Shown: in pieces, positions 13,683-35,500 of the stretch
Layout of the letters: each line of letters starts with the position of its first letter
Numbering within the stretch: position 1 is the stretch's first letter
Assembly (NCBI GenBank): GCA_043788685.1
Contig: JAYVTP010000023.1
Coordinates: forward strand, 1-36,190
From: Pseudolysobacter sp.
GTDB lineage: Bacteria; Pseudomonadota; Gammaproteobacteria; Xanthomonadales; Rhodanobacteraceae
Length of the DNA stretch: 36,190 nucleotides
Reading direction: 5' to 3'
Position numbers and translations under genes: made by a program
Notes under the pieces: generated by a model
What the model was told of the DNA's origin: nothing
The model's input: the letters and a program-made list of their open reading frames with translations, nothing else
Database searches by the model: none

Positions 13683-13703
13683 ATGTTGTTGCATTGATTC
13701 AGG

Positions 13704-13734
13704 CAGGGCGGCTTTCGGGCCGCCTTTGTTTTTT
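13704..13734 (+). terminator. Rho-independent terminator
   Basis: GGCGGC-tttcgg-GCCGCC stem followed by TTTGTTTTTT, about 20 nt after the 13682 stop. Confidence 0.85.
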
Positions 13735-13870
13735 GCGGCGAAAGATTTTGCAGGCGCGGGAACTTTTTGCAAAATATGTTGTAAATTCTCCGGTCGGCAT
13801 GCTTTGCGTGGTAGGCGCACCGTGCCAGAAGCCGCTGTTATCTCGACGAACAACCCATGGCGATACGACG

Positions 13871-14809: not shown

Positions 14810-15540
14810 ATACGATCGTGACTCTTTTCAAACGCGAACTCGGCAGTTATTTTGCCACGCCGGTCGCGTATGTCTTTATCGTGATCTTTCTGGCGCTGGC
14901 CGGTGCATTCACATTTTATCTCGGCGGTTTTTACGAGCGTGGCCAGGCCGATCTGCAGCCGTTTTTCAATTTCCATCCGTGGTTGTATCTGTTCCTCGTG
15001 CCGGCGGTTTCGATGCGCATGTGGGCGGAAGAACGCAAGAGCGGCACGATCGAATTGCTGCTGACCTTGCCGGTGACGATGTGGCAGGCGGTGTTCGCGA
15101 AATTCCTTGCGGCGTGGGCGTTCATCGGCATCGCCTTGTTGCTGACATTTCCGGTGTGGATCACGGTGAATTATCTCGGTTTGCCCGATAACGGCGTGAT
15201 CTTCGCGAGTTATCTCGGTAGTTTCCTCATGGCTGGCGCGTTTCTCGCCGTTGGTTCGTGTATTTCTGCGGCGACACGCAATCAGGTCGTCGCGTTTATC
15301 CTTACGGCTGCGCTGTGTTTTCTGTTCCTGCTTGCCGGCACGCCGCTGGTGCTGGATTTTTTCCGCGCATTTTTTCCGCAAGGCGTGATCGATGCGATCG
15401 CGGGCTTGAGTTTCCTGAGTCATTTCACCTCGATCAGCAAAGGCGTGATCGATCTGCGTGACATGATTTATTTCCTGGCGACGATCGGCTTCTGGCTGTA
15501 CGCCAATGCAGTGGTCATCGACCTCAAGAAAGCCGATTGA
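14806..15540 (+). CDS. ABC-2 type permease (GldF-like)
   Basis: KRELGSYFATPVAY...SMRMWAEERKSGTIELLLTLP...GVIDLRD; 6 TM segments; ATGA overlap. Confidence 0.92.
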   Translation: MNTIVTLFKRELGSYFATPVAYVFIVIFLALAGAFTFYLGGFYERGQADLQPFFNFHPWLYLFLVPAVSMRMWAEERKSGTIELLLTLPVTMWQAVFAKFLAAWAFIGIALLLTFPVWITVNYLGLPDNGVIFASYLGSFLMAGAFLAVGSCISAATRNQVVAFILTAALCFLFLLAGTPLVLDFFRAFFPQGVIDAIAGLSFLSHFTSISKGVIDLRDMIYFLATIGFWLYANAVVIDLKKAD

Positions 15541-15553
15541 GGAGAGAACAAAA

Positions 15554-17410
15554 ATGAATAATCGACGACTTCTTACCAGCAGCGCACTCGCCATCCTGGC
15601 CGTGCTGTTCGTGGCCGTGGTGCTGCTGAGCAATACGCTGTTCCGTGGTGCGCGCCTGGATCTCACCACCAATCATTTGTACACACTCTCGGAAGGCACC
15701 AAGAAAATTCTCGGCGAAATCGACGAGCCGGTGCATCTGTATTATTTTTTCTCGGACAAGGGCACGCAGAACAATCAGGGTTTGCGCACCTACGCCACGC
15801 GCGTGCGTGAAATGCTCGATGAGATGGCCGCGCGCGCTGGCGGCAAACTCAAGCTCGATGTGATCGATCCGCTGCCGTATTCGGAAGACGAAGATCGCGC
15901 CACCACACTCGGTCTGCAGGCGATTCCAGTCGGGCAGGGTGGCGAGAACCTGTTCTTCGGCTTGGCCGGAACCAACTCGACCAACGGCAAGGCAACGATT
16001 CCGATTCTCGATCCGGCCAAGGAAGAGTTTCTCGAATACGACGTGGCCAAACTCATCCATGGTCTGGCGATCAGCAAGAAACCGATCGTCGGCATCGTCA
16101 GCAGTCTGCCGATCAGCGCTGGCTTTGATCCGAGCACACGTCAGATGCGCGATCCGTGGGCGGTGCAGCAGCAGCTCGATCAGTTGTTCGATGTGCGTCA
16201 GCTCAGTGCGCCGTCGCTGAAAACGATCGACCCCGACATCAGCGTGCTCGTGCTGGTGCACCCGAAGGATTTGACCGACGATGCGTTATACGCGATCGAT
16301 CAATTCGTGTTGCGTGGCGGTCATCTCGCGGTGTTCGTCGATCCGATTGCGGAGAGCGAGCAGGTGCCGTCCGATCCGAGCAATCCGGCCGCGGCGGCGA
16401 TGGCGAACAAGTCATCCGATCTGCCGAAACTGTTCAAGGCGTGGGGCGTTTTATACGATCCGAACAAGGTCGTGCTCGACCGCACCTATGCATTGCAGAT
16501 TTCGACCGCGCAAGGCGCGCCGCCGATCCGCCATGTCGGCATTCTCGGTTTCACCGGCGCATCGCTGAATCCCGATGACGTGACTACGGCCAAGTTGCAG
16601 ACCATCAACACCTCGAGCGCCGGATTTTTCCAGCTCGACAAGGACAGCCCGCTGAAACTGGTGCCGCTGATCCAGACCAGCAAGGATGCGACCACGGTCG
16701 CGACCGAGCGCTTCAAGATGCTGTCCGATCCGAAGCAATTGCTGAACGGCTACGAGCCGACCGGCCAGTTGTACATCGTCGCCGGGCGCCTGCAAGGCAA
16801 GTTCAAGAGCGCATTCCCCGAGAAAACCGGCAAGGAACATCTGACCGAATCGAAGGAAGACGGCCAGATTGTGCTGGTCGCCGATACCGACATGCTTACC
16901 GATCGGTTGTGGGTGCAGATGCAGAATTTCTTCGGCCAGAAACTCAGCAATGCGTTCGCCAACAATGGTGACTTTTTCATCAACACGGTCGATAACCTGA
17001 CTGGTTCGAGCGAGCTCATCAGCATTCGCGGTCGGGCGACTTCGCAGCGTCCGTTCACCACGGTCGAGCGCATCAAGCGCACCGCTGATGAGCGTTTCCG
17101 CAACAAGGAAACGCAGCTGCAGCAAGAGCTCAACGAAACCGAACGCAAGCTCACCGAATTGCAGTCCGGCAAGAGCAAGGATCAGGCGATGATCCTCTCG
17201 CCCGAACAGCAAAGTGAACTGCTCAAGTTCCAGAATCGCAAGCTCGAAATCCGCAAGGAGCTGCGCGGGGTACGACGCCAGATGGATGCAGATATCGAAT
17301 CGCTCGGCACGCGCCTGAAGATGATCAACATCTTCCTGATGCCGCTGCTGGTAATCCTGCTGGCGCTGGGTTTTGCGTGGTGGAAACGCCAGCAGCGCGC
17401 GGTCAATTGA
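15554..17410 (+). CDS. GldG family ABC auxiliary protein
   Basis: ATG 15554 after GGAGAG; RLDLTTNHLYTLSEGT, EYDVAKLI, YAIDQFVLRGG, NNGDFFINTVDNL...LISIR; N- and C-terminal TM anchors and a coiled coil. Confidence 0.9.
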   Translation: MNNRRLLTSSALAILAVLFVAVVLLSNTLFRGARLDLTTNHLYTLSEGTKKILGEIDEPVHLYYFFSDKGTQNNQGLRTYATRVREMLDEMAARAGGKLKLDVIDPLPYSEDEDRATTLGLQAIPVGQGGENLFFGLAGTNSTNGKATIPILDPAKEEFLEYDVAKLIHGLAISKKPIVGIVSSLPISAGFDPSTRQMRDPWAVQQQLDQLFDVRQLSAPSLKTIDPDISVLVLVHPKDLTDDALYAIDQFVLRGGHLAVFVDPIAESEQVPSDPSNPAAAAMANKSSDLPKLFKAWGVLYDPNKVVLDRTYALQISTAQGAPPIRHVGILGFTGASLNPDDVTTAKLQTINTSSAGFFQLDKDSPLKLVPLIQTSKDATTVATERFKMLSDPKQLLNGYEPTGQLYIVAGRLQGKFKSAFPEKTGKEHLTESKEDGQIVLVADTDMLTDRLWVQMQNFFGQKLSNAFANNGDFFINTVDNLTGSSELISIRGRATSQRPFTTVERIKRTADERFRNKETQLQQELNETERKLTELQSGKSKDQAMILSPEQQSELLKFQNRKLEIRKELRGVRRQMDADIESLGTRLKMINIFLMPLLVILLALGFAWWKRQQRAVN

Positions 17411-17422
17411 GGAAGCACGGAC

Positions 17423-18733
17423 ATGAATAACAAAACTCTGTTGGGCTTGGCTGCCGCAGCGCTGGTCGCGTTGCTGGTAGCGGTGCTGCTGAATCACTCG
17501 AACAAGCCGCTCAACGAAACCACCGAGCAGACGCGTTTCCTGCTGCCGGGCCTGCGTGAACATGTCAACGAGGTCAGCCAGATCACCTTGACCGGCGCTG
17601 ACAACAAGGCCATGGCGACGCTCAAGCGCGGCGATGCCGGCTGGACAGTAGCGGAGAAATCCGCCTTTCCCGCCGACCTGGCCAAGGTGCGCGAATTCCT
17701 GCTCAAGCTCGCTGATGCGACACTCATTGAGCAGAAAACCTCGAACAAGGATCGTTACGCCGAGCTCGGTGTCGAGGACGTTACGGGCAAAGATGCCAAG
17801 GGCGTGCTCGTGGAGTTGGCAGGGCTGACGCAGCCGGTCAGGCTGATCGTCGGCAACTATAACGGTGGCGGTGGCGGCGGCACGTTCGTGCGGTTGCCGA
17901 CCGAGGCGCAAAGCTGGCTGGCCAAGGGCAATATCACGGTCGAGAAATCCGCGCCGAACTGGCTGCGCCACGAACTCACCGACGTGCAGGCTGCGCGTTT
18001 TCGCGAAGTTGTCTTGACCGCGCCCGATGGCAAGGTATTGAAGGCAGCGAAAGCAGCGCCGGGCGACGTCAACTACAAACTTGCCGATGTGCCGAAAGGT
18101 CGCGAACCGAGTTCGGATTTCGCCGCCAACGGCCTGGTTTCGACGCTGTCGGGTTTGCGTTTTGACGACGTGCTACCAGCCAAGGATGCGGAGCCAGGCG
18201 ACAAAGTATACAAAGCGCATTATGTCGCCTACGACGGGTTGATTGTCGATGTGCAAGCGTGGGAAAAAGACGGCAAGGACTACGCGCGATTCAAGGCGAC
18301 GCTCGATGCGGCCGCTGCCGAGACGCAGATCAAGACCGATCAGGCCGTTGCCAAGACTCAGTTCGATGCGAAACAGTTCGATGCCAAACAAGCCAAGCCT
18401 GAAGCGAGCGACAAGACGATGGCCGATGCCAAGCCCGATGCGGCGAAGCCGGCGCCCGATCTCACGCCGCCGCTCGCGGTCAGCGACCCAGCCAAGGATC
18501 ATGCGGATCGTTTGGCGTCGATCAGCAAGGAAATCGCCGATCTGAACAAACTGTTCGATGGCTGGTCGTTCGTCTTGCCGGTATACAAGTTCGCCAATAT
18601 CAACAAGAGCATGGATGAAATGCTCAAGCCGCTCGACGATGGCAAGGGCAAACTCGATCCGAAAAATCCCGGCAAAAAACTCAACACGCTGGTTGGCCCG
18701 GGTGCGACGATGCCGGGCGGCAAATTACAATAA
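17423..18733 (+). CDS. DUF4340 domain-containing protein
   Basis: N-terminal anchor, WTVAEKSAFPAD...YAELGVED...TFVR...QSWL; usual position after GldG. Confidence 0.8.
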   Translation: MNNKTLLGLAAAALVALLVAVLLNHSNKPLNETTEQTRFLLPGLREHVNEVSQITLTGADNKAMATLKRGDAGWTVAEKSAFPADLAKVREFLLKLADATLIEQKTSNKDRYAELGVEDVTGKDAKGVLVELAGLTQPVRLIVGNYNGGGGGGTFVRLPTEAQSWLAKGNITVEKSAPNWLRHELTDVQAARFREVVLTAPDGKVLKAAKAAPGDVNYKLADVPKGREPSSDFAANGLVSTLSGLRFDDVLPAKDAEPGDKVYKAHYVAYDGLIVDVQAWEKDGKDYARFKATLDAAAAETQIKTDQAVAKTQFDAKQFDAKQAKPEASDKTMADAKPDAAKPAPDLTPPLAVSDPAKDHADRLASISKEIADLNKLFDGWSFVLPVYKFANINKSMDEMLKPLDDGKGKLDPKNPGKKLNTLVGPGATMPGGKLQ

Positions 18734-19331: not shown

Positions 19332-19754
19332 ATGAAAACGATCACGGTTGCAGAACCCAAGCGCGTAGCGCCCGATACCGAAAAACTCACGATCAATCTG
19401 GGTGTCGTCGATCTCGGTCAGATTGATCTTCTCGTGCAGGAAGGATTTTATTCCAATCGCACCGATCTGATCCGCACCGCCATTCGTAATCAACTCACAG
19501 TGCATGGCGAGGAAATCAAAAGAACCGTAGCGCGGCGGACGTTGGTTTTGGGCCTGCACGATGTGCGTCGCAGTGATCTTGAGCGCATGCAGCGGCAACG
19601 ACAGATGCTGGATATCCAGGTGGTCGGCCTCGTGCGCATCGCCGATGATGTCTCGGCGAAATTGGCATTGGCCACGATTGCATCGATCGAGGTTCTCGGT
19701 GCGCTACACGCTTCTGCGGCAGTGCGCACTGCACTCGCCGCGCGTATTCGCTGA
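19332..19754 (+). CDS. CopG/ribbon-helix-helix family transcriptional regulator
   Basis: EKLTINLGVVDLGQIDLLVQEGFYSNRTDLIRTAIRNQL; this family is typically paired with PHB depolymerase-like esterases. Confidence 0.9.
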   Translation: MKTITVAEPKRVAPDTEKLTINLGVVDLGQIDLLVQEGFYSNRTDLIRTAIRNQLTVHGEEIKRTVARRTLVLGLHDVRRSDLERMQRQRQMLDIQVVGLVRIADDVSAKLALATIASIEVLGALHASAAVRTALAARIR

Positions 19755-19868
19755 ATCTTGGCTGGAGGTCGTTTGAAAATTTTACGAGGTTGGCGCAGCG
19801 GCTTGAACGCTGGCAAATTGGCAGGTTCGGCAGCAAATCGCGTCGGCAGCAAAAAGATCGCAGGGCTG

Positions 19869-20948
19869 ATGGATTCCATGCTCAAGGGAATTCAACGCCG
19901 CAGCAGCGAGAATCAATCGCCTACGAATATTTCGGCGACGATCTTGCGGGCGCTGAACGATGCCGGGTTGAGTTCGTCCGCCGTTACAGCAGCGGGCGCG
20001 GCCAGAACACATGCCAACGCTGCCACGTCTGGAAATTCCGCTCATGACAACGATCAATCGGGATCTTTCACTGCGCACTGTTTCAGCAATTCCGCAGGCA
20101 GTCGCAACTACAAGTTGTACGTGCCGCGTAGCTACGATGCGACCGCTGAAAAAACATTTCCACTGATCGTCATGCTGCATGGCTGCACGCAGTCGCCCGA
20201 TGATTTTGCGGCAGGAACGCAAATGAATACGCTGGCCGAACAGCACGGATTTCTCGTGTTGTATCCGGCGCAGTCCGCGAATGGCAACGGCTCGAAATGC
20301 TGGAACTGGTTTCGCGGCGGAGATCAACTTCGCGATTGTGGCGAACCATCGCTTCTCGCCGGAATGACGCAGGAGGTCGCACGCAATTTTCGTATCGACG
20401 ACCGTCGCATTTTTGTGGCAGGACTTTCGGCGGGGGCGGCAATGGCTGTGATCCTTGGCCAAACCTACCCGGATATTTACTCCGGCGTAGGCGTTCATTC
20501 CGGGCTGGCATACGCCGCGGCGCACGACGTGCCCTCCGCATTCCGCGCCATGCAGGGTTTGCATGATGTCACGGATGAATCCTCGCGCAAGCCTCAGCAC
20601 ACGGCGTTGTTGCCAACGATCATATTTCACGGCAATCGCGATACCACGGTGGCAGAAAAAAATGCCGGGATCATTGTGCAGCAGGCCCTCGCTGCGCATG
20701 GCGGCGCAGCGCCTTTGTCGAAAGCACAAAGTCGCGGAGAAGCTGGCGGACGGGGATTTGATTGCACCGTTTATCGTGATGAAGCGGGGCATGACATGAT
20801 CGAGTGCTGGACTATCGATGGCGCAGGACATGCGTGGTCGGGAGGCGACCGTATCGGATCGTATACAGACTCAACCGGCCCGAATGCGTCAGCGGAAATG
20901 CTGCGTTTTTTCTTCGCGTTACCGCCGCTTCAGACACCTGCGCGCTGA
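19869..20948 (+). CDS. PHB depolymerase family esterase (LpqC-like alpha/beta hydrolase)
   Basis: VMLHGCTQ oxyanion region, CWNWF, lipase box GLSAG, FHGNRD, GAGHAWSGG. Start uncertain (TTG 19758, ATG 19869 or 19878). Confidence 0.92.
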   Translation: MDSMLKGIQRRSSENQSPTNISATILRALNDAGLSSSAVTAAGAARTHANAATSGNSAHDNDQSGSFTAHCFSNSAGSRNYKLYVPRSYDATAEKTFPLIVMLHGCTQSPDDFAAGTQMNTLAEQHGFLVLYPAQSANGNGSKCWNWFRGGDQLRDCGEPSLLAGMTQEVARNFRIDDRRIFVAGLSAGAAMAVILGQTYPDIYSGVGVHSGLAYAAAHDVPSAFRAMQGLHDVTDESSRKPQHTALLPTIIFHGNRDTTVAEKNAGIIVQQALAAHGGAAPLSKAQSRGEAGGRGFDCTVYRDEAGHDMIECWTIDGAGHAWSGGDRIGSYTDSTGPNASAEMLRFFFALPPLQTPAR

Positions 20949-21191: not shown

Positions 21192-22031
21192 TCACCGCTC
21201 GATTTGGCAACGCCGCGCGCGCTCGAACTGATCGTCGTAACGACGCGGCATCGGTAGCACGACTTGTTTTTGCCGATGGGTTCGCGTTTGTCGCATCACA
21301 TTAAATCCGGCCGCGCTGAAAATGCGTTCGGCCGCCGCGAAATAAATCTGTGCCGGAAATGCATCCAGAATTCGGGTGGCGGCGGGCAATTTGTCGGGCG
21401 GTTGTTTGCTTGCCACCCACAGCTCGATGTCGCGGTTTTCGATAGTGCGAATCTCGTCAGCATAATCAATGATTTCTGCCACTTCCGCTGCCGGCCCGCT
21501 GTGCACGATCAGCCAGAAGGCATCGGCGCAATCGATGGGATCGGGCATCGGCGCGTCGATCAACTCAAGATATTCGATCCGATCGCTGTGCGCTTCGAGA
21601 AATTGCTGATGCGCGCAATGCAGTGGTTCAAGACACCAGACTCGTGTGTAGCATGGCGCTGAGCCGTAAATCAGCGGCGCGTATTGTTCCCAGCGCAGCA
21701 GGCGCGCGATATGCCAGAACTCAAGACCGAGATTGCTTGGCAGATCGCATAATTCGCCCAGAATTCCAGCGGGGAATACGTCGATGCAAATACATTCGGC
21801 ATCGAGTCTTTCGATGTGCCGGATCAACCACGCGCGAAAACTGGCAGCATTTTCCTGTAACGAATTCGGCACCGCAAGAATATTCAAGCCTTTCACAATA
21901 CGCGGATCGGCGGCAAACTCCGAGTGGGTCAGCACCGTGGTTTGCGCGGTGAGCTCGGTCATTTGCAGAAACGCTCTGGCGCGCACGAGATGACCGAGGC
22001 CACCGCCGAGGGCGTAATAAATCAGGCGCAC
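21192..22031 (-). CDS. Glycosyltransferase-like protein (GT-B fold, GT28/GT1-like)
   Basis: N-terminal YYALGGGLGHLVRA and C-terminal SAAGFN...LPMPRRYDDQFERA motifs; short at 279 aa; GTG start. Confidence 0.7.
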   Translation of the reverse strand: MRLIYYALGGGLGHLVRARAFLQMTELTAQTTVLTHSEFAADPRIVKGLNILAVPNSLQENAASFRAWLIRHIERLDAECICIDVFPAGILGELCDLPSNLGLEFWHIARLLRWEQYAPLIYGSAPCYTRVWCLEPLHCAHQQFLEAHSDRIEYLELIDAPMPDPIDCADAFWLIVHSGPAAEVAEIIDYADEIRTIENRDIELWVASKQPPDKLPAATRILDAFPAQIYFAAAERIFSAAGFNVMRQTRTHRQKQVVLPMPRRYDDQFERARRCQIER

Positions 22032-22080
22032 GATTTTGGCTTGCGCGCAGCGAAAGGCGAGGTTAGTGCAAGCGTGTTGA

Positions 22081-22701
22081 TTAGCGTCCGCGCGCCATCA
22101 ATTCGGCGACGATCACGAGTGCCGACTCGCGCGGAATACCGCTCATCAACAGCACCCCGTAAGCCGCGGAAAGCTTGCCGGCCTCGATCACGAACTGCTC
22201 GGTATCATTGCCATCCCTGACCTTGATCTTGCCGGTCTCCTTGCTGAATTTGACCTCGCCGATGGGATGCTCGGCCGGATCGACGATCTTCGCCTTGTCG
22301 CCATGATCGGTCTTGATCGCCCAGGCATTGGCATTTTGTTCGTTGTCGCTGATTTTGATCTTGTCGTCGCCGATTTTGATTTTCCACAACAGTTTGCTGT
22401 CCGGTGCGCGCAGCTTGAAACCAGCCGATTCGGATTTGACTTCGACCAACGCCGGGCCGCCCGCACCACGATGGTAGTAACGTTTGTCGCCGATGCTGTC
22501 GCCGATCAGTTTTACGTTGGTCGTGGTGATTTCGACATGGCCGGCATTGACCGTGATCGTGATTTTTTCCGCGTCTTTTGACGCGGCGATCACCGCGCTA
22601 GCGGAGGCATCAACTGTCGGTATCGTGGCAGCGCAATGCGCCGCATTACTCGCGAAAAAAAATCCAGAAAGGCTCAAGATGAGAAGGATGCGTGCGGTCA
22701 T
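22081..22701 (-). CDS. Exported beta-strand-rich hypothetical protein
   Basis: Signal peptide; repeated K/I/V-rich beta-hairpins (WKIKIGDDKIKISD, AKIVDPAEHPIGEVK, KIKVRDGND) and a C-terminal hydrophobic helix; start overlaps the upstream stop (22698-22701). Confidence 0.75.
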   Translation of the reverse strand: MTARILLILSLSGFFFASNAAHCAATIPTVDASASAVIAASKDAEKITITVNAGHVEITTTNVKLIGDSIGDKRYYHRGAGGPALVEVKSESAGFKLRAPDSKLLWKIKIGDDKIKISDNEQNANAWAIKTDHGDKAKIVDPAEHPIGEVKFSKETGKIKVRDGNDTEQFVIEAGKLSAAYGVLLMSGIPRESALVIVAELMARGR

Positions 22702-23879
22702 GTCTGGTATTCCTTGAGGTGGATTGGTGCGCTCGATTTGCGTTTATCGCGAGTGATGCTTGATGCGGTTTCGGTCAGCAGTTCGTGATATCGGCGTGCC
22801 TCGATGCGCTGGTCGAATTCGCGCAACACCGTGGTTTGCAGGTTGATGCCGAATGTCTGTCGCGTGGGCTCCGGCATTTCGATGGCAGCATCCAGCGCGC
22901 GGCGACAGGCGTGACCATCGCCCGGCGCAAAGGTCAGCGCGTTGTCGCCTTCGATCAGCAGATCGGCGAGACCACCGACCATCGCGCCGAGTACCGGGAT
23001 ACCTAGCGCGGCGGCTTCGAGCGCGACGTTCGGCATGCCATCGTAGAGCGACGGAATCGCCACGAAATCGCACGCTGCATACCAGCGCAGCAGTTCGAGC
23101 CGGTCGAGAAACGGCACATGCGTCCACGCAATATTCGTCGGCAAGGCTTGCAGGCGTGTGAGCATTTCGGTCTCGATCTCGCCGACGATCAGCAGATGCG
23201 CCTGCGCTGCATTTTCGCAGCCTTCGAGTGCATCGAGAAAAAACAGCCCGCCTTTTTTTCGCTTCAGATGGCCGAACAAACCGATCACCGTTTGGCTGTC
23301 GCACGCCTGCGCTGTGCGCCACGCATGCGCCTGATCGCGATCAATATCGAGCAAGGTCCAATCGTTTGCATCGATGCCATTGGCGATCCATTCGCTGCAA
23401 ATATCGGGAAACAAACTCGACACCTTGTGGCGATGATCGGTGCTGACCGCGCATACCGCAGCGGAGTGCGCGAGCGCATCGCGCAACATCCAGCCACGAC
23501 TCAACGAAAAAATACCGGTATCGAAATCGTTGCCGCGCAATAACGTGATGAGCGGAACCTGCATCCACGCGGCGAAACTCGGCGCGCACAACATCGGCAA
23601 CAAACCACCGAACGCGAGGATATGCGAAGGACGAATCGGATCATGCCCGAGCGTGTTCCACAGCAGGTTGAGCGCATGCGCCGGATCATCCGCGATCGGG
23701 CAGCAGATCAGCCGCCCGCGCTCGTGCTGGTCGATGCGCAGCGCGGCATGGCGCGCACTCAGATGCACCACGTCGAGGTCGACACCACGCGAGCGCAGAC
23801 CGCGCACGATGCGATCGCAGGATTGCGCCATGCCGCCACGATCGGGCGGAAAGTTTTCGGTGAGCAGCAGCGGTCGCAT
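22698..23879 (-). CDS. Glycosyltransferase family 4 protein
   Basis: Likely start ATG 23879 (MRPLLLTENFPPDRGGMAQSC); IANGID, GHLKRKKG, PSLYDGMPNVALEAAALG (D-x7-E variant of the GT4 motif). Confidence 0.9.
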   Translation of the reverse strand: MRPLLLTENFPPDRGGMAQSCDRIVRGLRSRGVDLDVVHLSARHAALRIDQHERGRLICCPIADDPAHALNLLWNTLGHDPIRPSHILAFGGLLPMLCAPSFAAWMQVPLITLLRGNDFDTGIFSLSRGWMLRDALAHSAAVCAVSTDHRHKVSSLFPDICSEWIANGIDANDWTLLDIDRDQAHAWRTAQACDSQTVIGLFGHLKRKKGGLFFLDALEGCENAAQAHLLIVGEIETEMLTRLQALPTNIAWTHVPFLDRLELLRWYAACDFVAIPSLYDGMPNVALEAAALGIPVLGAMVGGLADLLIEGDNALTFAPGDGHACRRALDAAIEMPEPTRQTFGINLQTTVLREFDQRIEARRYHELLTETASSITRDKRKSSAPIHLKEYQT

Positions 23880-23883
23880 CGTC

Positions 23884-24273
23884 TCAACTGTCGTTGAAGC
23901 CGGCGCGCGTATTGTCGCTGCCGTCGTCGATTTCGCCTTCGCGCTGGTTGAACGAGCGCGTGTCGTACTGATCATAATACGTGCTGTGATGCGAGCCGAG
24001 GTAGATCGGCGAATAACCGCTGTCGTAATACCGATGCCGGTAGGAATACGCCCAGTCGTCGTCATAAGTATTGTTGGCATTGGTCGCGCGGGGATTGGTC
24101 GTCGCGGTTTGCTGTTCGCTGCGCGCCCAGCAATCGCGGCATTGCGAAAACTTGCTGGCCACTGCGGAGTGCTCATAGCACATCGCGCGCTGGCACGTAG
24201 TGCATTGTCCGAGTGATGGCTCGCCACAATCGCGCAGCGAGAAAAACCCGCTCTTGCATTGGCATGCGCTCAT
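23884..24273 (-). CDS. Small Cys/His zinc-finger-like protein with Tyr/Asp-rich C-terminal tail
   Basis: ATG 24273 overlaps the upstream stop (ATGA); 129 aa: MSACQCKSGFFSLRDCGEPSLGQCTTCQRAMCYEH...CRDCW then ...YDDDWAYSYRHRYYDSGYSPIY...YYDQYD...GFNDS. Confidence 0.8.
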   Translation of the reverse strand: MSACQCKSGFFSLRDCGEPSLGQCTTCQRAMCYEHSAVASKFSQCRDCWARSEQQTATTNPRATNANNTYDDDWAYSYRHRYYDSGYSPIYLGSHHSTYYDQYDTRSFNQREGEIDDGSDNTRAGFNDS

Positions 24274-25151
24274 GCGGCGCTCCTGGTCGGTGGGGTGGCG
24301 CGTTGGTAGGCTTCGGAAATCACGTCGATCAAGACGCGTGGATCGAGCGGCTCCAACGACTTCGCCTTGAACTTGCGCACGAGTTTGACATCGCTGCGCT
24401 TGGCGCTGTGCTGCACCGTGATTTTCGATACGGGCAGTTGCGGTGAGCGACTTGCCGACGCATTCACGCCGTAGGATTTGTTCGGCAGCGACAGCCCGAT
24501 CGCGACCAGGCTGCGTTTGCAATGGCGCAGCTTGGTTTTCGTTTTGCCGCTGCTGCTGCGCTTGCTGCGTTTGCTTTCGCAAATCGTATCGAGCAAACGC
24601 CAACGCAAGATCGCATCATCCGCCAGTCGCGCCGAACCATCGAACCACGGATCGCGGTAAGTAGTATCGACGATTTTGTTGTAGGCGCCGCGCTCGTACG
24701 GTTTGGATGTGCCGGCGCATTTTTTGCTGTCGATCACAGGCGTGAGGTCGAGACGAACCGACAGCTTCTGCGCTGCCCGCATATCCTGTTTGAGGATCGC
24801 GATGAACGGCAACGCCACTGCGCTGATATTTTCGGAAATCGCGAATTGCGACAGGCGGCGCGTGATCATCGAAAGATAGATAAATGCAGCAATCGCCACC
24901 GCGAAAATGCAAAGGCGCAATCCGAACGGTAACGGCGAAATGAACAAAATGCCGATCGCCAGCGCAATCGCGAGCAGCTTCCACTTCAGCAATCGACTTC
25001 GCATCGCTGAATTTTGCTGATCGAATTTGGCCAGTGCGCGCATCTGTTCGAGCAGAGCCAGCGCAGTGAATTCACCGCTGATTTTTTTCTTGTCGATCGC
25101 CCTGCGCAACGCGGGCGACAGACTGTTGAACGCATTGAGTGAAGAGAACAT
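24270..25151 (-). CDS. Hypothetical membrane protein (2 TM) with basic C-terminal domain
   Basis: ATG 25151 after an AAGGAG RBS; two adjacent hydrophobic helices; YRDPWFDGSARLADD and KRSKRSSSGKTKTK segments. Confidence 0.78.
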   Translation of the reverse strand: MFSSLNAFNSLSPALRRAIDKKKISGEFTALALLEQMRALAKFDQQNSAMRSRLLKWKLLAIALAIGILFISPLPFGLRLCIFAVAIAAFIYLSMITRRLSQFAISENISAVALPFIAILKQDMRAAQKLSVRLDLTPVIDSKKCAGTSKPYERGAYNKIVDTTYRDPWFDGSARLADDAILRWRLLDTICESKRSKRSSSGKTKTKLRHCKRSLVAIGLSLPNKSYGVNASASRSPQLPVSKITVQHSAKRSDVKLVRKFKAKSLEPLDPRVLIDVISEAYQRATPPTRSAA

Positions 25152-25185
25152 CCTGGACTCCTTGGTTGAATTCAAGCGACTGGAT

Positions 25186-26403
25186 TCAGGCCGATGTCGC
25201 GGTGAAGGCGGCATCGGCGTGTGGTGCAGTTTCGACAGCATGCCTTGGATCGATACGTCGATAAATATCACGCAGCAGTTGCAACGAATGCGGCCAGGTA
25301 AATCCATTGGCGATGCGTTCGCGCCCACACTCGCCCATCCTGCGGCGACGCTCGGGATACGCCATCAATACCCGAATCGCGCGCGCCAGTTCGGCCGGCC
25401 GATCCGGCGCCACCAAGCGTCCTTCGATGCCATCGCGAATCAGTTCGCGCACCGGTGGCAGATCGGATGCAATCACCGCAACACCTGCAGCCATCGATTC
25501 GAGAATCTTCAATGGCGCGCAACCTTGTAAGACATTGCGCGCGCACTCACGCAACGGTACCAGTGAGATTTCCGCATTGACGATCCACGGCGCGAGTTCC
25601 GCCGCCGAAAGCTGCCAGCGCCAGACGATACGATCATCGAGGCCGAGTTTGGTCGCGAAACGTTCGCTGCGCCGTGCATCGCGCGATAACTGCGATCCGC
25701 AAATCACGAGGTGCAGATCGTCCATATCGGCCAATAATGCAAACGCGCGCAGCAAGGTATCGATGCCTTGCCAGGTTTGCAGTGCGCCGAAATAAATCAG
25801 GTATTTTTGCGGTGCCTCGGTTGGGCGCGGTGATGGCTCGATCAGCTCGGCACCGTTCGGCACGACGGTGATTTTGGCGCTGGCAACACCGAGTGATTCG
25901 AGCAGGCCGCGCGTCGTGTGCGATGGCGTGACGATCGCATCGCAGCGATCAAGACAATACAACTCGGTGGCGCGAATTTTCTCCAGCGTGCGCGGCGCGA
26001 TGCCCGGATACGCATGCAACAATTCGATCGAGGGCAGGGCATTGACCTCAAACACCGTCGCGTAATCGTGCGGCCGCGACAACAACGGCACACCGCTCCA
26101 CGGGTCGCGGAAGTGCGCGATGGCAAGCCCGCTCGCGGCGTGATCCAGAACTCGTTCGAGATACGCGCCATAGGCCGTGGCGCGTTTGAGAAAGTTATCG
26201 AACGGCAGCGAAAATCGCAGGATTTCGACATTGCCTTCGCGCTGCTGCACCGGCAGCGTGGTATCGCCCAGCACGTACAACAAACCGCTGCCCGCATAGT
26301 CGAACAGGCACGGCGCAAAACGCGCGATATGGTTCGATGCTCCCTTGCACGTCGGGAATCGGTCGAAGGCAGCATAAAGCGATCGCGGTTGGGTCAGCAG
26401 CAT
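25186..26403 (-). CDS. Glycosyltransferase family 4 protein
   Basis: YAAFDRFPTCKGASNHI N-terminus, VVPNGA, YFGALQTWQGID, QGCAPLKILESMAAGVAVIASD. Start ATG 26403 (GTG 26436 alternative). Confidence 0.92.
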   Translation of the reverse strand: MLLTQPRSLYAAFDRFPTCKGASNHIARFAPCLFDYAGSGLLYVLGDTTLPVQQREGNVEILRFSLPFDNFLKRATAYGAYLERVLDHAASGLAIAHFRDPWSGVPLLSRPHDYATVFEVNALPSIELLHAYPGIAPRTLEKIRATELYCLDRCDAIVTPSHTTRGLLESLGVASAKITVVPNGAELIEPSPRPTEAPQKYLIYFGALQTWQGIDTLLRAFALLADMDDLHLVICGSQLSRDARRSERFATKLGLDDRIVWRWQLSAAELAPWIVNAEISLVPLRECARNVLQGCAPLKILESMAAGVAVIASDLPPVRELIRDGIEGRLVAPDRPAELARAIRVLMAYPERRRRMGECGRERIANGFTWPHSLQLLRDIYRRIDPRHAVETAPHADAAFTATSA

Positions 26404-26506: not shown

Positions 26507-26637
26507 AAATAAACGCGTAATGCATTTTGCAGGGCAACCGCCCAAAGACAACTTTCGGGATTCTCGTTATGTGCAGAAAATACTTCTCGACGGTGCGCTT
26601 GCTCTTGGGCATTCACTTATGGTTGTCACGTACCGTG

Positions 26638-27747
26638 ATGGCACTGATGTTGATCTGCGTCACCTTCGCCTTTACGTTCACCAATGCAGCCGTCGCGGGT
26701 AGTACGTTCACTGCCACTGGCAGCATGGCCACGGCGCATGTGTATACCGCCGCCACACTGCTATCCAACGGACAGGTGCTGATTGCGGGCGGACGCAATA
26801 CCAATGGCGTCGTCTCCGGCGCGGAACTCTACAACCCTGCGAGCGGCACGTTCGCGCCGACCGGCGATCTGCTGGTGGCTCGTTATGCCGCCAGCGCAAC
26901 ACTTCTTCCCAACGGCCAGGTTCTTGTCGCGGGAGGTTATGACAGCACCGATCATATGCTGGACACCTGTGAACTTTATAGTCCGGCGAGCGGCATATTC
27001 AGCAGCATCGGCAGCCTGATTTCCGCGCGAGCCTTCGCCACCGCGACCATGCTCAACAACGGCCGCGTGCTACTCGCAGGGGGCTTCGGCAAGTTTGGCA
27101 CGACGCTCGCGACTGGCGAGATCTATGATCCATCGACCGGCGTGTTTACCGCGGCCGGCAACATGCCCACGGCCACCGCATACGCCAGTGCTACCTTGCT
27201 GGCCAATGGTGAGGTGCTGATCGCCGGAGGTTCGCTGAGCGGTGTCAATCTTGTCCAAGCGCAGCGTTATGACTCCATCAGCAACACTTTCACCGCCACC
27301 GGCACGATGGCGGCGGGGCGCAGGCAGACTGCTGCCAGCCTGTTGCCGAATGGAAAAGTGCTGATCGCCGGCGGCTTCGGTAACGACCAAATCGCGCTCG
27401 TCAGTACCGAGCTTTTTGATCCTGCCAGCGGCGCTTTCGTCGCCGGCAATGACCTGATCCGGGCGCGTCAAAACGCAACCGCCACGTTGTCCGGCGGCCA
27501 GGTATTGATCGTGGGCGGTAGTGGTGCTGCGGGCTATGTCAGCGGCGCCGAGCGTTACGATCCCGTCACTGGCAAGTTCGCCAGCAACGGCAATCTGAAT
27601 ACCGCGCGCTGGCTTGCGACCGCGACTCTGCTGCCGAACGGCAAGGTGTTGATCGCCAGCGGCGTGGGCAGTGACGGATATCTAAGCAGCGCGGAAATCT
27701 ACGATCCGGCGGGTGACACGTTGTTGTCGGACGGCTTCGAGGGTTGA
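26638..27747 (+). CDS. Exported Kelch-repeat (7-bladed beta-propeller) protein
   Basis: Seven repeats of F.ATG.M...R...ATLL.NG.VL.AGG...AE.YDP; signal-peptide-like N-terminus; ends DTLLSDGFEG. Start uncertain (26569 or 26638). Confidence 0.9.
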   Translation: MALMLICVTFAFTFTNAAVAGSTFTATGSMATAHVYTAATLLSNGQVLIAGGRNTNGVVSGAELYNPASGTFAPTGDLLVARYAASATLLPNGQVLVAGGYDSTDHMLDTCELYSPASGIFSSIGSLISARAFATATMLNNGRVLLAGGFGKFGTTLATGEIYDPSTGVFTAAGNMPTATAYASATLLANGEVLIAGGSLSGVNLVQAQRYDSISNTFTATGTMAAGRRQTAASLLPNGKVLIAGGFGNDQIALVSTELFDPASGAFVAGNDLIRARQNATATLSGGQVLIVGGSGAAGYVSGAERYDPVTGKFASNGNLNTARWLATATLLPNGKVLIASGVGSDGYLSSAEIYDPAGDTLLSDGFEG

Positions 27748-29917: not shown

Positions 29918-30104
29918 TGCTGGCAAGTCTCGCTGGAAATCCTGATGGCTCTCTGCCCGTCGTTCGCGCTTTGCGGAAATGACGGCGTTTGCAACGCCTG
30001 CGTATCGCAGCACATCTAGAACGATTCTTATGCCGAGGTCAAGTTGCGAAACGGTAATGTTGCGGCCATGCTGCGACATAGTTGCGTCGCCTAAGTTATG
30101 CACT

Positions 30105-31469
30105 ATGCTTACTCCAGCTGGCGCTTGCCAGTTTATTTCTCACGCTACGCTGACATGTGCACTCTGCGCGTTGTCGGCCTGCGCAAGCTACACGGCGCGC
30201 CCGCTTGATACGCATGCGGCGGCGAAAACCGATGTGGCCGAACTACGCCATGCGAAGCCATTGCCGGCACGGCTCGGCATTGCCGATATCGAACGTCTGG
30301 CGCTGGACAACAACCCCGAGCTGATCGCTGCGCGCACCCAGCGCGGCTTGTCGCGGGCGCAGTTGCGCATAGCCGGAACTCTGCCTAATCCGGTACTTAG
30401 CGCGGGCTATCAGGACGTACTCAGCGGGCCTGGCACATTCGCGGCGCTGGCGGCTGGCCTGACCCAAGACCTGAAAGCATTGGTCACGCTTTCGTCGAGG
30501 CGCCACGCCGCGCAGAAATCGGCGCAATCGGTGGATGTGACGGTGCTGTGGCAGGAGTGGCAGACTGTCGGCAAGGCAAGACTTTCGGCTGTGGATCTGG
30601 TCCAAGGTGACAAGCAACTCGCCCTGTTGCGCAGCAATGCCAAGTTATGGAGCGAGCGAATCGATCGTGGTCGCCAGGCGCTCGCGCAGGGCGACGCGAC
30701 TCTGACGACGCTGACGCCGGACATTGCGGCCGGTTCCGATGCGCAGAAACTGTCCGACGATTTTGCACGTCAGCAACAGATGCGACGACGCGATCTGAAC
30801 CTGCTGCTCGGACTGGCGCCGCAGGTGATGTTAGCCCTGACTGACGACGTCGCCGCGCCTGCGCTCGATGCCGAAGCAACCCTCGCGCAATTGCCCGATC
30901 TCGCCAATCGGCGGCCGGACTTGATCGCACTGCAACTCGGTTATCAGGCGCAGGAAGAAAAAGTGCGCGGCGCGATCCTCGCGCAGTTCCCGTTGTTTTC
31001 GCTCGGCTACAACTATGCTCGCGATACGAGCAACGTGCGCACGCTCGGGCCGCAGTTGACGATGGACCTGCCGGTGTTCGACCGCAACCAGGGCAACATC
31101 GCGCAGGAGCAGGCAACACGCGAGCAACTGCATGCCGAGTTCAATGCGCGCTTGATCGCAGCGAAATCCGAAGTCGAAGCACTGCTCGCCGAGCAGAAGA
31201 TTTTGCACGAACAACTCGCCGCCAAACGCGACCTGTTTGCGGCAATAGCCCCCATCGTTACGAGCGCGGAAAACGCCTACCGCAGCGGCGATATCGACGC
31301 GCGAAATTATGTCGATCTCGTCGCCACGCACAATGCCAAACAGCAGGAAATCCTCGCCATGCAACTGACTCTTCTCGAACAGCAGATAGCGATCGCTACC
31401 CTGGTCGGTGTCGGCATGCCGCCAGTGGCTTTGGTCGATGCGCAGACGAACTCGGAGACGACGCCATGA
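30105..31469 (+). CDS. TolC family outer-membrane efflux (lipo)protein
   Basis: Lipobox-like ALSAC; ALDNNPEL, RRPDL, LPVFDRNQGNI outer-membrane-factor motifs. Start ATG 30105 is approximate. Confidence 0.9.
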   Translation: MLTPAGACQFISHATLTCALCALSACASYTARPLDTHAAAKTDVAELRHAKPLPARLGIADIERLALDNNPELIAARTQRGLSRAQLRIAGTLPNPVLSAGYQDVLSGPGTFAALAAGLTQDLKALVTLSSRRHAAQKSAQSVDVTVLWQEWQTVGKARLSAVDLVQGDKQLALLRSNAKLWSERIDRGRQALAQGDATLTTLTPDIAAGSDAQKLSDDFARQQQMRRRDLNLLLGLAPQVMLALTDDVAAPALDAEATLAQLPDLANRRPDLIALQLGYQAQEEKVRGAILAQFPLFSLGYNYARDTSNVRTLGPQLTMDLPVFDRNQGNIAQEQATREQLHAEFNARLIAAKSEVEALLAEQKILHEQLAAKRDLFAAIAPIVTSAENAYRSGDIDARNYVDLVATHNAKQQEILAMQLTLLEQQIAIATLVGVGMPPVALVDAQTNSETTP

Positions 31470-32584
31470 AATCCCGAACGCGGTTCGTCCTGCTTGTTGG
31501 TGCGCTCGTCGGTACGGCGGCAGGCGTGATGGTTTCTTCCATCCTGCGTGCCGCTGCGGGCGACGCGAAAGCCGAAGCAAGCAGTGTGCTCGTCGAAACC
31601 AAACCGGTACGGCAAGGTGAGATTGCCGACAGGCTGATTGCCTACGGTAGTGCCGTGCCGGCGATCAACGGCGGCATGACCATGAGCGTGCAGGCTGAGG
31701 GGCGCGTCATAGGTATCATGGCCACCCCGGGCGAAGCCGTGCATACCGGGCAGGCTTTGCTCGAATTTCAGTTGTCGGCGGCGGCCAGCAGTACTTACAG
31801 CCAGGCTATTTCCGCAGTCAAACTGGCGCAGGGGGAACAGACCCGAATCGCGCGATTGCTTGAACAACAGCTTGCCACTCGCGACCAGAAGGCGCTGGCC
31901 GACAAGGCGGCGAGCGATGCGCAGGCGGCGCTCGCCGCGCTCGAACACGAAACGGGCGGCAGGCAGCAACAGACTTTGCTTGCGCCGTTCGATGGCGTCG
32001 TCGCTACGGTTCCGGTCGCGCAGGGCGATCGCATCGCGGCAGGCGCGCCGCTGCTCACGCTCACGCGCACCAACGGCTTGATCGTCACTGTCGGCATCGA
32101 GCCAAGCGAGCGGATGCGTTTGAAATTGGGCCAACGTGTAGAAATGGAATCGCTTGGCGATGCGGCAGTCAAGCACGAGGGCAAGCTCGCGCGCATTGAT
32201 CGCAGTTTGAATCCGAAAACGCGCCTCGTCGATGCGGATATCGCCGTCGAGGAGGAGATACTTCAAGGCGACGCGTTTCGCGCGAGTATCGTCGTCGGTC
32301 AGTTGAAGGGCTGGCTGGTACCGCGCGATGCGGTGCTCGACGATGACGAAGGCGCGTACCTGTTCCAGGTTGACGGCAGCAAAGCGGTGCGCGTGAAGGT
32401 CGAACGTATCGGCAGGGACGAGGAAACCGCGGTTGTCGAGGGTACGCTGAATGCGCAGCGCGAGGTCGTCGTGCTGGGCAACTACCAGCTCGAAAACGGC
32501 TTGGCAGTGCGCAAAGCGCCTGCTGAAAATGACAAGGAAGATGCCGCCAAGGACGAAAAAACACCCGGCGCAAAGAAACCATGA
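31466..32584 (+). CDS. RND efflux periplasmic adaptor (membrane fusion protein)
   Basis: N-terminal anchor, lipoyl half-motifs (GEAVHTGQAL; LLAPFDGVV), helical hairpin, VPRDAV; ATGA overlap. Confidence 0.93.
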   Translation: MKSRTRFVLLVGALVGTAAGVMVSSILRAAAGDAKAEASSVLVETKPVRQGEIADRLIAYGSAVPAINGGMTMSVQAEGRVIGIMATPGEAVHTGQALLEFQLSAAASSTYSQAISAVKLAQGEQTRIARLLEQQLATRDQKALADKAASDAQAALAALEHETGGRQQQTLLAPFDGVVATVPVAQGDRIAAGAPLLTLTRTNGLIVTVGIEPSERMRLKLGQRVEMESLGDAAVKHEGKLARIDRSLNPKTRLVDADIAVEEEILQGDAFRASIVVGQLKGWLVPRDAVLDDDEGAYLFQVDGSKAVRVKVERIGRDEETAVVEGTLNAQREVVVLGNYQLENGLAVRKAPAENDKEDAAKDEKTPGAKKP

Positions 32585-35500
32585 ATTTCGTCGGTCTGAT
32601 CGAACAGCATTCGCGCTCGCTGTTGTGTGTCGCTGGCGCACTGGCGATCGCGGGCCTGGTTGCTGCGCTGTCGTTGCCGGTCGGTTTGTTTCCGCAGGTC
32701 TCGTTTCCACGTGTGGTGGTTGACCTCTCCTCGGGCGACAGGCCGGCCGATCAGACTGTGCTCAGCGTGACGCGCCCGGTCGAAGAAGTGATCCGTTCGG
32801 TGCCCGGCGTGCGCGAAGTACGCTCGGCCTCATCGCGCGGTGCGGCGCAGATATCCGTCGATTTCGGCTGGGGCCGCGACATGATCGCGACCACGCTGCT
32901 GGTCAATGCAGCAATCAGTCAGGTACTGCCGAAGTTGCCCGCCGGAACCTCGTATGGCGTGCGGCGTATGGACCCGACCGTGTTTCCGATTATTTCCTAC
33001 GCGCTGACCTCGGACAAACTCACGCCGAATGCACTGCGTGATCTCGCGCAGTTTCAGATCGTGCCGCTGCTTGCCTCGGTGCCCGGCCTCGCCCGCGTCG
33101 GTGTGCAGGGCGGTGCGATCGACGAAGTGCATGTGCTCGCTGATCCGCATCGACTCGCGACATACAATCTCGGTCTCAACGATCTCGTCGCCGCAATCAC
33201 GGCAGGTAATGCGCTGCAGGCGATCGGGCGGGTGCAGGATCACGACAAACTTTATCTGGTCGTGTCGAACAGCAACCTGCGCGCGCTCGATGAACTCAAG
33301 CAGATCGTGATCCGCAGCGATCCCGCTGGCATCGTGCGCCTCGGCGATGTCGCCGACGTGCAAGCCGGCTCGGCGCCGGAATGGATCCGCGTGGTCGAGG
33401 ACGGCAAACCTGCCGTGCTGTTCAACGTCTACGAGCAGCCCGACGGCAATGCGGTACAGATTGCACAGCAGGTGCACGAGCGACTTGCCGGGTTCAAGCT
33501 GCCGGCAGGCGTGACGCTTGCGAATTGGTACGATCAGAGCGTGCTCGTCGTCGATTCGGTCGCGAGCGTGCGCGATGCGGTGCTGATCGGTCTCGCACTT
33601 GCCGGTATCGTGCTGTTCGTGTTCCTGCGCAATGCGCGTGCGATGTTGATCGCTGTTCTCGTCGTGCCGGCTACGCTGGCAATCACGGTACTGCTGCTAG
33701 ATGCGCTCGGTTTCAGCTTCAACATCATGACGCTGGGCGGCATTGCCGCGGCGGTTGGCCTGGTGATCGATGACATGATCGTGATCATCGAGCACATCGC
33801 ACGTCGTGCCGGTGCTGCCGGTGTCAGCGACGGCCGCGCGGCTGTGCTTCCTGCCACGCGCGAATTTCTGCGTCCACTGACGGGTTCGAGTCTCGCTACG
33901 CTGATTGTATTTCTGCCCTTGAGTTTCATGAGCGGCGTCACCGGCGCATTCTCGAAAGCGCTCGCGGTGACGATGGCGTCAGCGCTGATCATTTCGTATC
34001 TGTTCGCCGCACTCATCGTACCGATCCTCGCGCGCCGCTTCATCGATTTCAATCGCTGGCACGATCCGGCTACGGATCGCGAGGACTGGCTTTCGCGTCA
34101 TCACGCCAATTTGCTCGAACGAGTATTTCGCAAGCCCGTCATTCTTGTCGCCGCCGTTGTGCCGCTGTTGCTGATCGGCGCACTCTCGTATACCAAGGTG
34201 CCGAGCGGTTTCATGCCGAAGGTGGACGAAGGCGGCTTCGTGATGGATTTTTATACGCTGCCCGGAACCTCGCTCGACGAAACCGAGCGCGAGTTGCAGC
34301 AGGTCGAGGCGATTCTGCACGAGCAGCCCGAAGTGCTGACATTTTCGCGCCGTACCGGCACTGGTCTTGGTGGTGAGCTGGGCGAAGCGCATCACGGCGA
34401 TTTCTTTGTGCGCCTGAAATCCGATCACGAACGCGGCACCGAAGAAGTGATGGCCGCTGTGCTTGCAGATATCGACAGTACGGTGCCCGGCGTACAAATC
34501 GAACTGGCACAATTGTCCGAAGACCTGATCGGCGATCTGACGGCGGTGCCGCAACCGATCGAAATCAAGCTCTATGCCACCGATCCCGCCAAACTGATTC
34601 CGCAGGCGCGCAAGGTCGCCGCAGCGATCGGGAAGATCGATGGCGTGGTCGAAATCAAGGACGGTGTGATGCTCGCCGGCGATGGCATCAACGTCAAAAT
34701 TGACCCGGTCAAGGCCGCGTTCGAATCGGCGACGCCGGATGAAATCAGCAAGGGCGTTGATATCGCGTTGAACGGAGCGATCGCGACGCAATTGCCGCAT
34801 GCCAACAAGCTGGTCGACGTGCGAGTTCGCATCCCCAATGCGATGAAAATGAGCACAGAAGGTCTGGCCGATCTGCCGATCCGCGCCACAGACGGCCATT
34901 TGTTTCCGCTACGCCGCGTCGCCACGCTGACGCCGGTATCGGGCGAGCCGGAAATCTCGCGCGACAATCTCGAGCCGATGGTGGCCGTCACTGCGCGCAT
35001 CGAGAATCGCGGCATCGGCGCAGCGGTGGCCGACGTGCAAAAAATGCTGGCGCAGCCGGGTCTGCTCGCTTCCGGTGTGCGTTACGAGTTGGGTGGCCTG
35101 TATCGCCAGCAGCAAATCGCATTCGCGAGTCTGGCTCTCGTATTCCTTGCGGCGCTGATAGCAGAGCTCGTGCTCTTGCTCGTGCTGTATGAAGATTTCT
35201 GGCTGCCGCTGATCATCGTTGGCACTTCGCTGCTCTCGACCAGTGCCGTGTTCACGGCGCTGTGGATCACTGGCGTGGAATTGAATATCACGGCGTTGAT
35301 GGGGATGACAATGGTGATCGGAATGGCCACCGAAATGGCGATATTTTACGTCAGCGAATACACCGAACTTGCGCACACGCTGCCGCCACGTCAGGCACTC
35401 ATGGAAGCCAGTCGCAATCGTCTGCGCCCCATTACCATGACCACACTCGCCGCAATTCTGACCTTGATGCCGCTGGCGCTCGCCATCGGCCAAGGCGCGG

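Follow-up and report, generated by a model that had tools for sequence, protein, structure and literature searches.

The window analyzed here, a stretch of 36,190 nucleotides from Pseudolysobacter sp. (contig JAYVTP010000023.1), contains a compact six-gene operon that is a real, conserved, and unnamed system, a conclusion that is well supported. The six genes are co-oriented, all on the minus strand, and are transcribed in the order A (GT4), B, C, D (GT4), E, and F (GT1/28-like):

25186..26403, minus strand: A, a GT4 glycosyltransferase of 405 aa, recognized by Pfam, with a 37-row alignment containing many invariant residues
24270..25151, minus strand: B, 293 aa, an unnamed family with two predicted membrane helices and a basic β-rich domain
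23884..24273, minus strand: C, 129 aa, with a B-box-like zinc finger, a Tyr/Arg-rich linker, and an acidic tail; candidate acceptor or carrier
23887..23961, minus strand: tail of C, the last 25 codons, acidic and ending in the invariant Ser (codon 23889-23887)
22698..23879, minus strand: D, 393 aa, the second GT4 glycosyltransferase, in which the D-x7-E motif (D280, E288) is intact and Arg/Lys residues are invariant
22081..22701, minus strand: E, 206 aa, an exported protein, often a lipoprotein in homologues, likely Tubby/LURP-like
21192..22031, minus strand: F, 279 aa, a short GT-B-type protein, likely an inverting glycosyltransferase

The gaps between A and B, C and D, and E and F are 34 bp, 4 bp, and 49 bp, and B/C and D/E are joined by ATGA overlaps. 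The open reading frame positions, strand, lengths, and junctions thus bear out the six co-oriented genes with ATGA overlaps or short gaps described by the sequence-only reading, an earlier interpretation of this DNA made from its letters alone. The G+C content of the operon (56-60%) is like that of the window. B, C, E, and F had no match in Pfam, NCBIfam, or PADLOC, and A and D reached no NCBIfam cut-off. No RNA holder was listed, and the promoter/terminator scan gave a result at chance level.

GTDB was scanned with an alignment of D, which gave 374 related stretches; the best 80 were kept, and this set is therefore biased to relatives of the D protein of the window. The hosts of the 80 loci belonged to Acidobacteriota, Actinomycetota, Bacteroidota, Pseudomonadota, Chloroflexota, Verrucomicrobiota, SAR324, and Ozemobacteraceae, representing at least six phyla. 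The complete set ABCDEF was present in 42 loci and ABCDF in 17, with D alone in 8, ABDEF in 1, and other partial sets, mostly at contig ends, in 12. The gene order was unbroken in all 80 loci, and because the same order recurs in distant phyla, the gene set is far beyond chance. Five genomes with D standing alone carried A, B, and C elsewhere in every case and F in four of the five. Among 28 complete loci, A was the most conserved member (median identity 55.5%; 51-56% for the GT4 proteins) and B the most variable (31%).

Three sets of genomes (131 Cytophagales, 281 Xanthomonadales, and 191 Acidobacteriota) served as unbiased samples beside the D-based scan. In Cytophagales, A, B, and D occurred in the same 18 genomes, even where the operon was scattered, and three of these 18 were already in the D scan; F was found in 17 of the 18 and E likewise in 17, and C was a separate gene in 14. 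B and D were common to the same 3 Xanthomonadales genomes. A, B, and C were common to four Acidobacteriota genomes; a fifth (G541) carried a divergent set, and a sixth held a finger-only C-like protein alone. No P value is given for the co-occurrence, since related genomes are not independent. The exceptions were E without D in 2 of the 131 Cytophagales genomes (G090 and G063) and the finger-only protein in 1 of the 191 Acidobacteriota genomes. These isolated E genes, whose genomes gave no D, and a second D copy that stands isolated in G080 are at the loci L162 4494-5183, L163 3870-4679, and L165 3802-4908.

These results agree with the self-contained, unnamed glycosylation module proposed by the sequence-only reading, which would have taken conserved co-occurrence in distant phyla with a patchy distribution as support and had named two findings that would speak against it. 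The co-occurrence was seen, in the same order across at least six phyla. As to the first contrary finding, unknown genes traveling without the glycosyltransferases, B tracked D in Cytophagales and Xanthomonadales, and tracked A in the four Acidobacteriota genomes and in the fifth with a divergent A; as to the second, a surrounding exopolysaccharide (EPS), lipopolysaccharide (LPS), or osmolyte locus, no such gene recurred around the 80 loci. The latter result bears directly on the possibility that the operon is a fragment of an EPS, LPS, capsule, or osmolyte pathway with its remaining genes elsewhere, which we regard as very improbable. A and D matched many polysaccharide glycosyltransferase models, all far below their cut-offs, and the donor nucleotide sugars must come from other loci. 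However, all-against-all clustering of the 80 loci placed every other family in 10 loci or fewer, off-frame shadows of the six genes excepted, and no EPS, LPS, or osmolyte gene, exporter, polymerase, priming transferase, or phosphatase was recurrent around them; moreover, such pathways have no part for the three unnamed families, and both monoderm and diderm phyla carry the module. Within the window, neither Wzx, Wzy, or Wzm nor a priming transferase or nucleotide-sugar enzyme was found among the 26 further open reading frames chosen from the 188 listed for a Pfam scan, in line with what had been claimed.

The distribution is patchy at close range. The nearest named homologues are from Pseudolysobacter at 83-90% identity, and a genome of the same genus, G002, shows collinearity across the operon and its flanks at 88%; D was missing in 2 of 4 same-genus genomes, and the module was found in 2 of 40 relatives. 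Cultured carriers include Solirubrobacter soli, Patulibacter minatonensis, and Flexithrix dorotheae, and Pseudolysobacter antarcticus has a homologue. A D tree of 79 loci and the window, made by a quick method with L039 dropped as short, ran mostly by phylum (6 changes of label, compared with a mean of 37 after shuffling), with the Xanthomonadales copies joining Thermoanaerobaculia at 99% support in the Shimodaira-Hasegawa-like approximate likelihood ratio test (SH-aLRT). The tree appears compatible with an old system that underwent much loss and some transfer.

Patchiness of this kind (2 of 40 relatives; 3 of 281 Xanthomonadales) could also be expected of a recognition or defence module, in which the variable B (and E) would sense an invader or a neighboring cell and the glycosyltransferases would act as effectors on C or on molecules of the invader. 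GT4 domains are predicted conflict effectors according to PMC8195603, and D gave a weak GT4-conflict match (22.9 bits; cut-off 26). B, besides being the most variable member, is expanded in tandem arrays, and some E proteins are fused to a tetratricopeptide repeat (TPR)-like region and a membrane helix. Nevertheless, the six genes had no PADLOC match; PADLOC matches were found in 8 of 128 flanking proteins from 22 loci, a proportion given with no background control, and were mostly generic (ATPase, kinase, protease, WYL, TIR). No match to the module was found in plasmids, phages, or viral contigs, the D tree runs mostly by phylum, and the genes persist singly where the operon is scattered, unlike mobile defence cassettes. 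We therefore consider this explanation quite unlikely, and the defence option raised by the sequence-only reading drew no support from mobility or neighborhood.

Two of the three enzymes were placed with confidence. A and D belong to GT4, with PF00534 and PF13439 above cut-off and the donor-binding motifs kept; for PF00534 the scores were 96 bits for A and 64 bits for D (cut-off 26.4), D being scanned from an internal start 14 codons short. D280-x7-E288 and K209 were invariant in 26 D rows, and P297-x-K299-x-x-E302 was invariant in 37 A rows. Neither protein has a clear membrane segment. In 59 copies of F, the motifs GGGxGHxxR, His14, Asp84, G-F-N, and D-D-Q were invariant or nearly so, which we take, from UGT and MurG enzymes, to represent a His-Asp catalytic pair and a nucleotide-sugar site. 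PF13528 was matched by 9 of the 59 F homologues (best E 6e-6). Judged from these residues, F is likely an inverting glycosyltransferase, presumably an active one. Of the three glycosyltransferases originally claimed, A and D therefore stand by Pfam, and the GT28-like label of F rests on motifs and relatives, with no family match in the window copy.

The most constrained feature of the small protein C is its last residue. Its head contains 7 invariant Cys and 1 His in a B-box-like zinc finger, followed by a middle part that is aromatic and rich in Arg, and then by an acidic tail; among 66 members, the finger gave weak matches to B-box in 8 and AN1 in 6. All 68 C copies end in Ser, 59 of them in Asp-Ser, usually with an aromatic residue two places before the end, and the penultimate position also contains A, E, Q, or L. 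The terminal Ser is the sole invariant hydroxyl residue of the alignment. For comparison, 145 of 2629 long open reading frames in the genome of the window end in Ser (5.5%), and at the same loci a terminal Ser was found in 4 of 64 A, 11 of 67 B, 16 of 80 D, 0 of 51 E, and 6 of 66 F proteins. The Bacteroidota locus L082 encodes a B protein fused to a C-type tail without the finger, and the truncated L058 looks alike. From these fusions it was predicted that Cytophagales genomes without a separate C carry B-tail fusions, and this was borne out: all 4 such genomes have a B-tail fusion ending in [D/E]-Ser, and the 14 separate Cytophagales C proteins all end in Asp-Ser. As the fusions lack the finger and the divergent C of G541 also ends in Ser, it appears that the finger can be lost and that the free terminal serine cannot; it is this serine, rather than the finger, that looks essential to C. 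A reading of the Asp-Ser motif as a phosphopantetheine carrier site was rejected, since nothing follows the Ser here.

PDB sequence searches for C, E, and F gave nothing significant, and Atlas searches with the stored B and C homologues returned only unnamed clusters. No longer protein with C inside it turned up in a search made for such proteins, a negative of little weight. ESMFold2 on D, A, and C together gave 0.45 against 0.00 for the best control and 0.00 with A replaced, with runs agreeing in at least 44% of contacts and a partner pLDDT (predicted local distance difference test) of at least 58, and no interface was given. Passes at 0.60 or below comprised 18 of 157 solved complexes and both of the 2 passing mismatches (of 215), so the result is weak; it weakly suggests that C may contact A or the GT4 pair.

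B is likely an inner-membrane dock for C. The window copy has hydrophobic peaks at about 59 and 78 and an isoelectric point of 10.5, and its model (pLDDT 96) consists of a long helical hairpin, two segments of which are hydrophobic, and a sheet whose long strands are rich in Lys. Its soluble domain would be cytoplasmic, because it is fused to the tail of a signal-less, Cys-rich protein. The median net charges of the families are +14 for the B soluble domain and -7 for the C tail. B has 1025 relatives at the 50% cluster level, among which there was no named family. A wide fold search was filled with generic helical hairpins, and Foldseek found nothing at E<=0.001 in the PDB; middling matches were obtained with actin capping protein (Z 8.0, root-mean-square deviation (rmsd) 4.0, 129 aligned), DR_1245 (Z 7.1, rmsd 4.6, 119 aligned), and SycN-YscB (Z 6.4, rmsd 3.7, 106 aligned), and the matches among viral structures were low-TM (template modeling score) maturation proteins. 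B is also the member that multiplies. A B-C-B-C-B run occurs in L031, and tandem B expansions occur in Cytophagales and Pyrinomonadales, with 12 B paralogues in G042 against single A, C, D, E, and F genes. The tandem diverged arrays of Cytophagales lie at L092, L093, and L094 (G042) and L096-L098, and several copies carry an extra hydrophobic middle insert. At L098 2-1843, a gene for a bacterial major vault protein (PF11978, PF17795) converges on the B array; this was seen once, in one Cytophagales genome.

E carries a signal peptide, often with a lipobox Cys, and had no Pfam or PDB sequence match. Its confident model contains 14 strands and two C-terminal helices. The best matches that include the C-terminal helix were At5g01750 (Z 7.9, rmsd 4.2, 125 aligned) and Tubby (Z 7.6, rmsd 4.5, 130 aligned), and the comparison with 1zxu gave a Foldseek probability of 1.0 and TM scores of 0.38/0.46; on the sheet alone, outer-membrane barrels scored higher (Z about 10). 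The model thus likely has a Tubby/LURP-like fold, with middling scores. Four Cytophagales loci (L160 2322-3344, L161 2601-3641, L166 2550-3665, and L167 3301-4428) encode the E domain behind a helical, cytoplasmic TPR-like region and a membrane helix, a receptor-like arrangement, and one copy has a sub-threshold Death-domain match (E 5e-4). E was missing in all 15 Actinomycetota loci. At 8 Actinomycetota loci without E, an unrelated small lipoprotein gene with no Pfam match stands head-to-head with A (L040 5964-6446, L061 6035-6568, L073 6067-6546, L079 6105-6851); it may stand in for E, or its position may only reflect synteny between related genomes.

The divergent set of G541 lies at L171 849-5193 and L176 2-2543. 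In L171, C, F, and B are adjacent and are followed by an FG-GAP-like propeller membrane protein with a C-terminal zinc ribbon and by a radical SAM (S-adenosylmethionine) enzyme. The F protein of L171 is only 17-25% identical to the others, with PF04101 below cut-off, and its C protein has Leu before the terminal Ser. A 1e-60 cut made G541 look like a variant without GT4; that reading was dropped once a less strict search recovered an A orthologue of full length (E 3e-54) on another contig, where it overlaps an ABC exporter gene (PF00664 and PF00005). D was not found at 1e-20 in this fragmented 2.6-Mb assembly, and a metagenome scan with the variant F returned the same contig only.

The system itself is well supported, and the mechanism is about an even call. 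In the reading we prefer, which we give an even chance, the tail of C would be docked at the inner membrane by B, and its terminal serine would be glycosylated by the three enzymes. B would hold C at the inner face of the membrane, where we infer both B-C binding and a cytoplasmic site for the two; A, D, and F would load a short sugar chain on the C-terminal serine, the presumed acceptor, in a presumed order; and glycosylated C would act as a switch or as a LysW-like carrier. The observations behind this reading are the joint inheritance, the invariant terminal Ser, the B-tail fusions, the opposite charges of the C tail and B domain, and the assignment of A and D to GT4. Where a hydroxyl residue has to be last and is encoded next to three sugar transferases, the least complicated explanation is that it would serve as their acceptor. 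As for the fate of the glycan, it may tentatively be taken to stay on C as a mark in a membrane-linked switch, whereas its hand-off to an envelope acceptor via E seems rather unlikely; the former is favored, since the loci show no recurrent releasing hydrolase, flippase, or oligosaccharyltransferase. A likewise speculative and fairly improbable proposal makes C an equivalent of LysW for sugars, a glycan carrier made of protein: an oligosaccharide would be built on the C-terminal serine of C at the membrane by three nucleotide-sugar transferases, with interchangeable B proteins and a Tubby-like E passing the glycan to envelope acceptors without undecaprenol.

Several points weigh against glycosylation of C. 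Docking motifs that are read with a free carboxylate, such as the SSB tail, EEVD, and HbYX, just as typically have a last residue that never varies. No gene for release, flipping, or transfer was recurrent in the 80 loci, F had no solved-structure match at E<0.01, and the complex prediction is weak, lacks an interface, and leaves out F and B. A simple dock does not explain the 12 B paralogues of G042, and a lipid-binding-like fold outside the cytoplasm, as predicted for E, points to a lipid product.

The main rival possibility, which we consider less likely than not, is that the F-x-D-S tail would be a docking or activating motif rather than a substrate: with B, C would bring the three enzymes to the membrane and activate them there, their substrate would be a lipid or small molecule, and E would bind or move the glycosylated product in diderm envelopes. 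GT4 and GT28-type enzymes commonly make glycolipids, and the PDB matches of the GT4 proteins include PimA/PimB. The Tubby-like matches of E agree with it, as does the finding that E was not found in any of three monoderm-type genomes searched whole (two Solirubrobacterales and one Chloroflexaceae) that carry the rest of the module, and in the variant genome A overlaps an exporter gene. According to PMC10584680, Tubby-like proteins bind phosphoinositides or act as scramblases. However, a pure docking motif should allow Ala or Thr in some of the 68+18 copies, and none does, though the penultimate Asp varies. A and D lack a clear membrane segment, the lipid-glycosyltransferase matches were no better than those to MshA, BshA, or glycogen synthase, and the fold match of E is middling, with outer-membrane barrels higher on the sheet alone.

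In the window, a Kelch/galactose-oxidase-type propeller protein (26527-27747, plus strand) is divergent from A and collinear in G002, and it is not a recurrent neighbor at other loci. A ribbon-helix-helix regulator and an esterase of the polyhydroxybutyrate (PHB) depolymerase family (19332-20948, plus strand) converge on the operon end. The ordinary neighbors are an ABC transporter with PF09822 and DUF4340 partners (13694-18733, plus strand), an M2 peptidase like angiotensin-converting enzyme (ACE) (164-1999, minus strand), and a resistance-nodulation-division (RND) efflux set adjoining a two-component pair (29979-35643, plus strand).

B, C, E, and the window copy of F have no Pfam, NCBIfam, or PADLOC entry, yet the set is co-inherited across at least six phyla. 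Literature searches, with most subscription papers outside their coverage, found no description of the gene set or of a Ser-tipped glycan carrier. If the serine does gain sugars, they would be either a dedicated on/off mark for a pathway linked to the membrane or part of a glycan assembled on a protein carrier, neither of which was found in the literature searched. If it does not, a tail-controlled route to an envelope glycoside would still be new. The idea of a co-encoded target, offered by the sequence-only reading for the small protein, the membrane protein, or a lipid, has gained specific support for the small protein through its invariant terminal Ser, and the target itself stays a candidate.

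Comparison with known systems set the module apart from each of them. Unlike an EPS, LPS, or capsule locus, it has no linked export, polymerase, priming transferase, or nucleotide-sugar genes. It resembles the GT4 conflict effectors of Kaur et al. 2021 (PMC8195603) in its GT4 domains and in its many filamentous or gliding hosts; unlike those systems, it shows no STAND, AP-GTPase, TIR, or caspase fusion, and PF20706 was below cut-off. A term search of 12 of the 13 supplement files of the same paper gave no row for the operon.

A small gene product beside glycosyltransferases is also found in glycosylated peptides that are made ribosomally and modified post-translationally (RiPPs) such as glycocins and pseudomycoidin, and in PMC11912497 the lasso peptide pseudomycoidin carries hexoses on a phosphate at its C-terminal Ser. 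Unlike in glycocin and lasso systems, no leader peptidase, transporter, cyclase, or kinase recurs in the 80 loci, and the C tail is also fused to a membrane protein, which argues against a released peptide. The GT-B enzymes SdgB and SdgA glycosylate Ser in Asp-Ser peptides along a positive groove (PMC8561734). The module is like SdgA/SdgB and GtfA/GtfB in that two GT-B enzymes are encoded together and in its candidate acceptor motif, which is acidic and reads Asp-Ser. It differs in that A (405 aa) and D (393 aa) lack the DUF1975 insertion (no such Pfam match), the SdgA/B models scored about 15 bits against a cut-off of 800, and in place of a large exported serine-rich repeat adhesin the candidate substrate would be a presumably cytoplasmic protein of 129 aa with a single Ser at its end.

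A similar architecture is that of the amino-group carriers and the pearlins. In PMC9303977, acidic carriers are read by basic enzymes and modified at their last residue, and the N-terminal part of pearlins is dispensable. In architecture only, C is like LysW/AmCP and the pearlins in being small and acidic, with a globular head, a conserved C-terminal extension with a fixed last residue, and co-encoded enzymes, and its finger is dispensable as is the N-terminal part of the pearlins. No sequence similarity was seen, and no ATP-grasp ligase, PEARL, or releasing peptidase or hydrolase recurs in the 80 loci. LysW itself has a zinc finger. In contrast to LysW/AmCP, the last residue of C is Ser (68/68) rather than Glu, and in contrast to both groups, the enzymes of the module are glycosyltransferases and are accompanied by a membrane partner.

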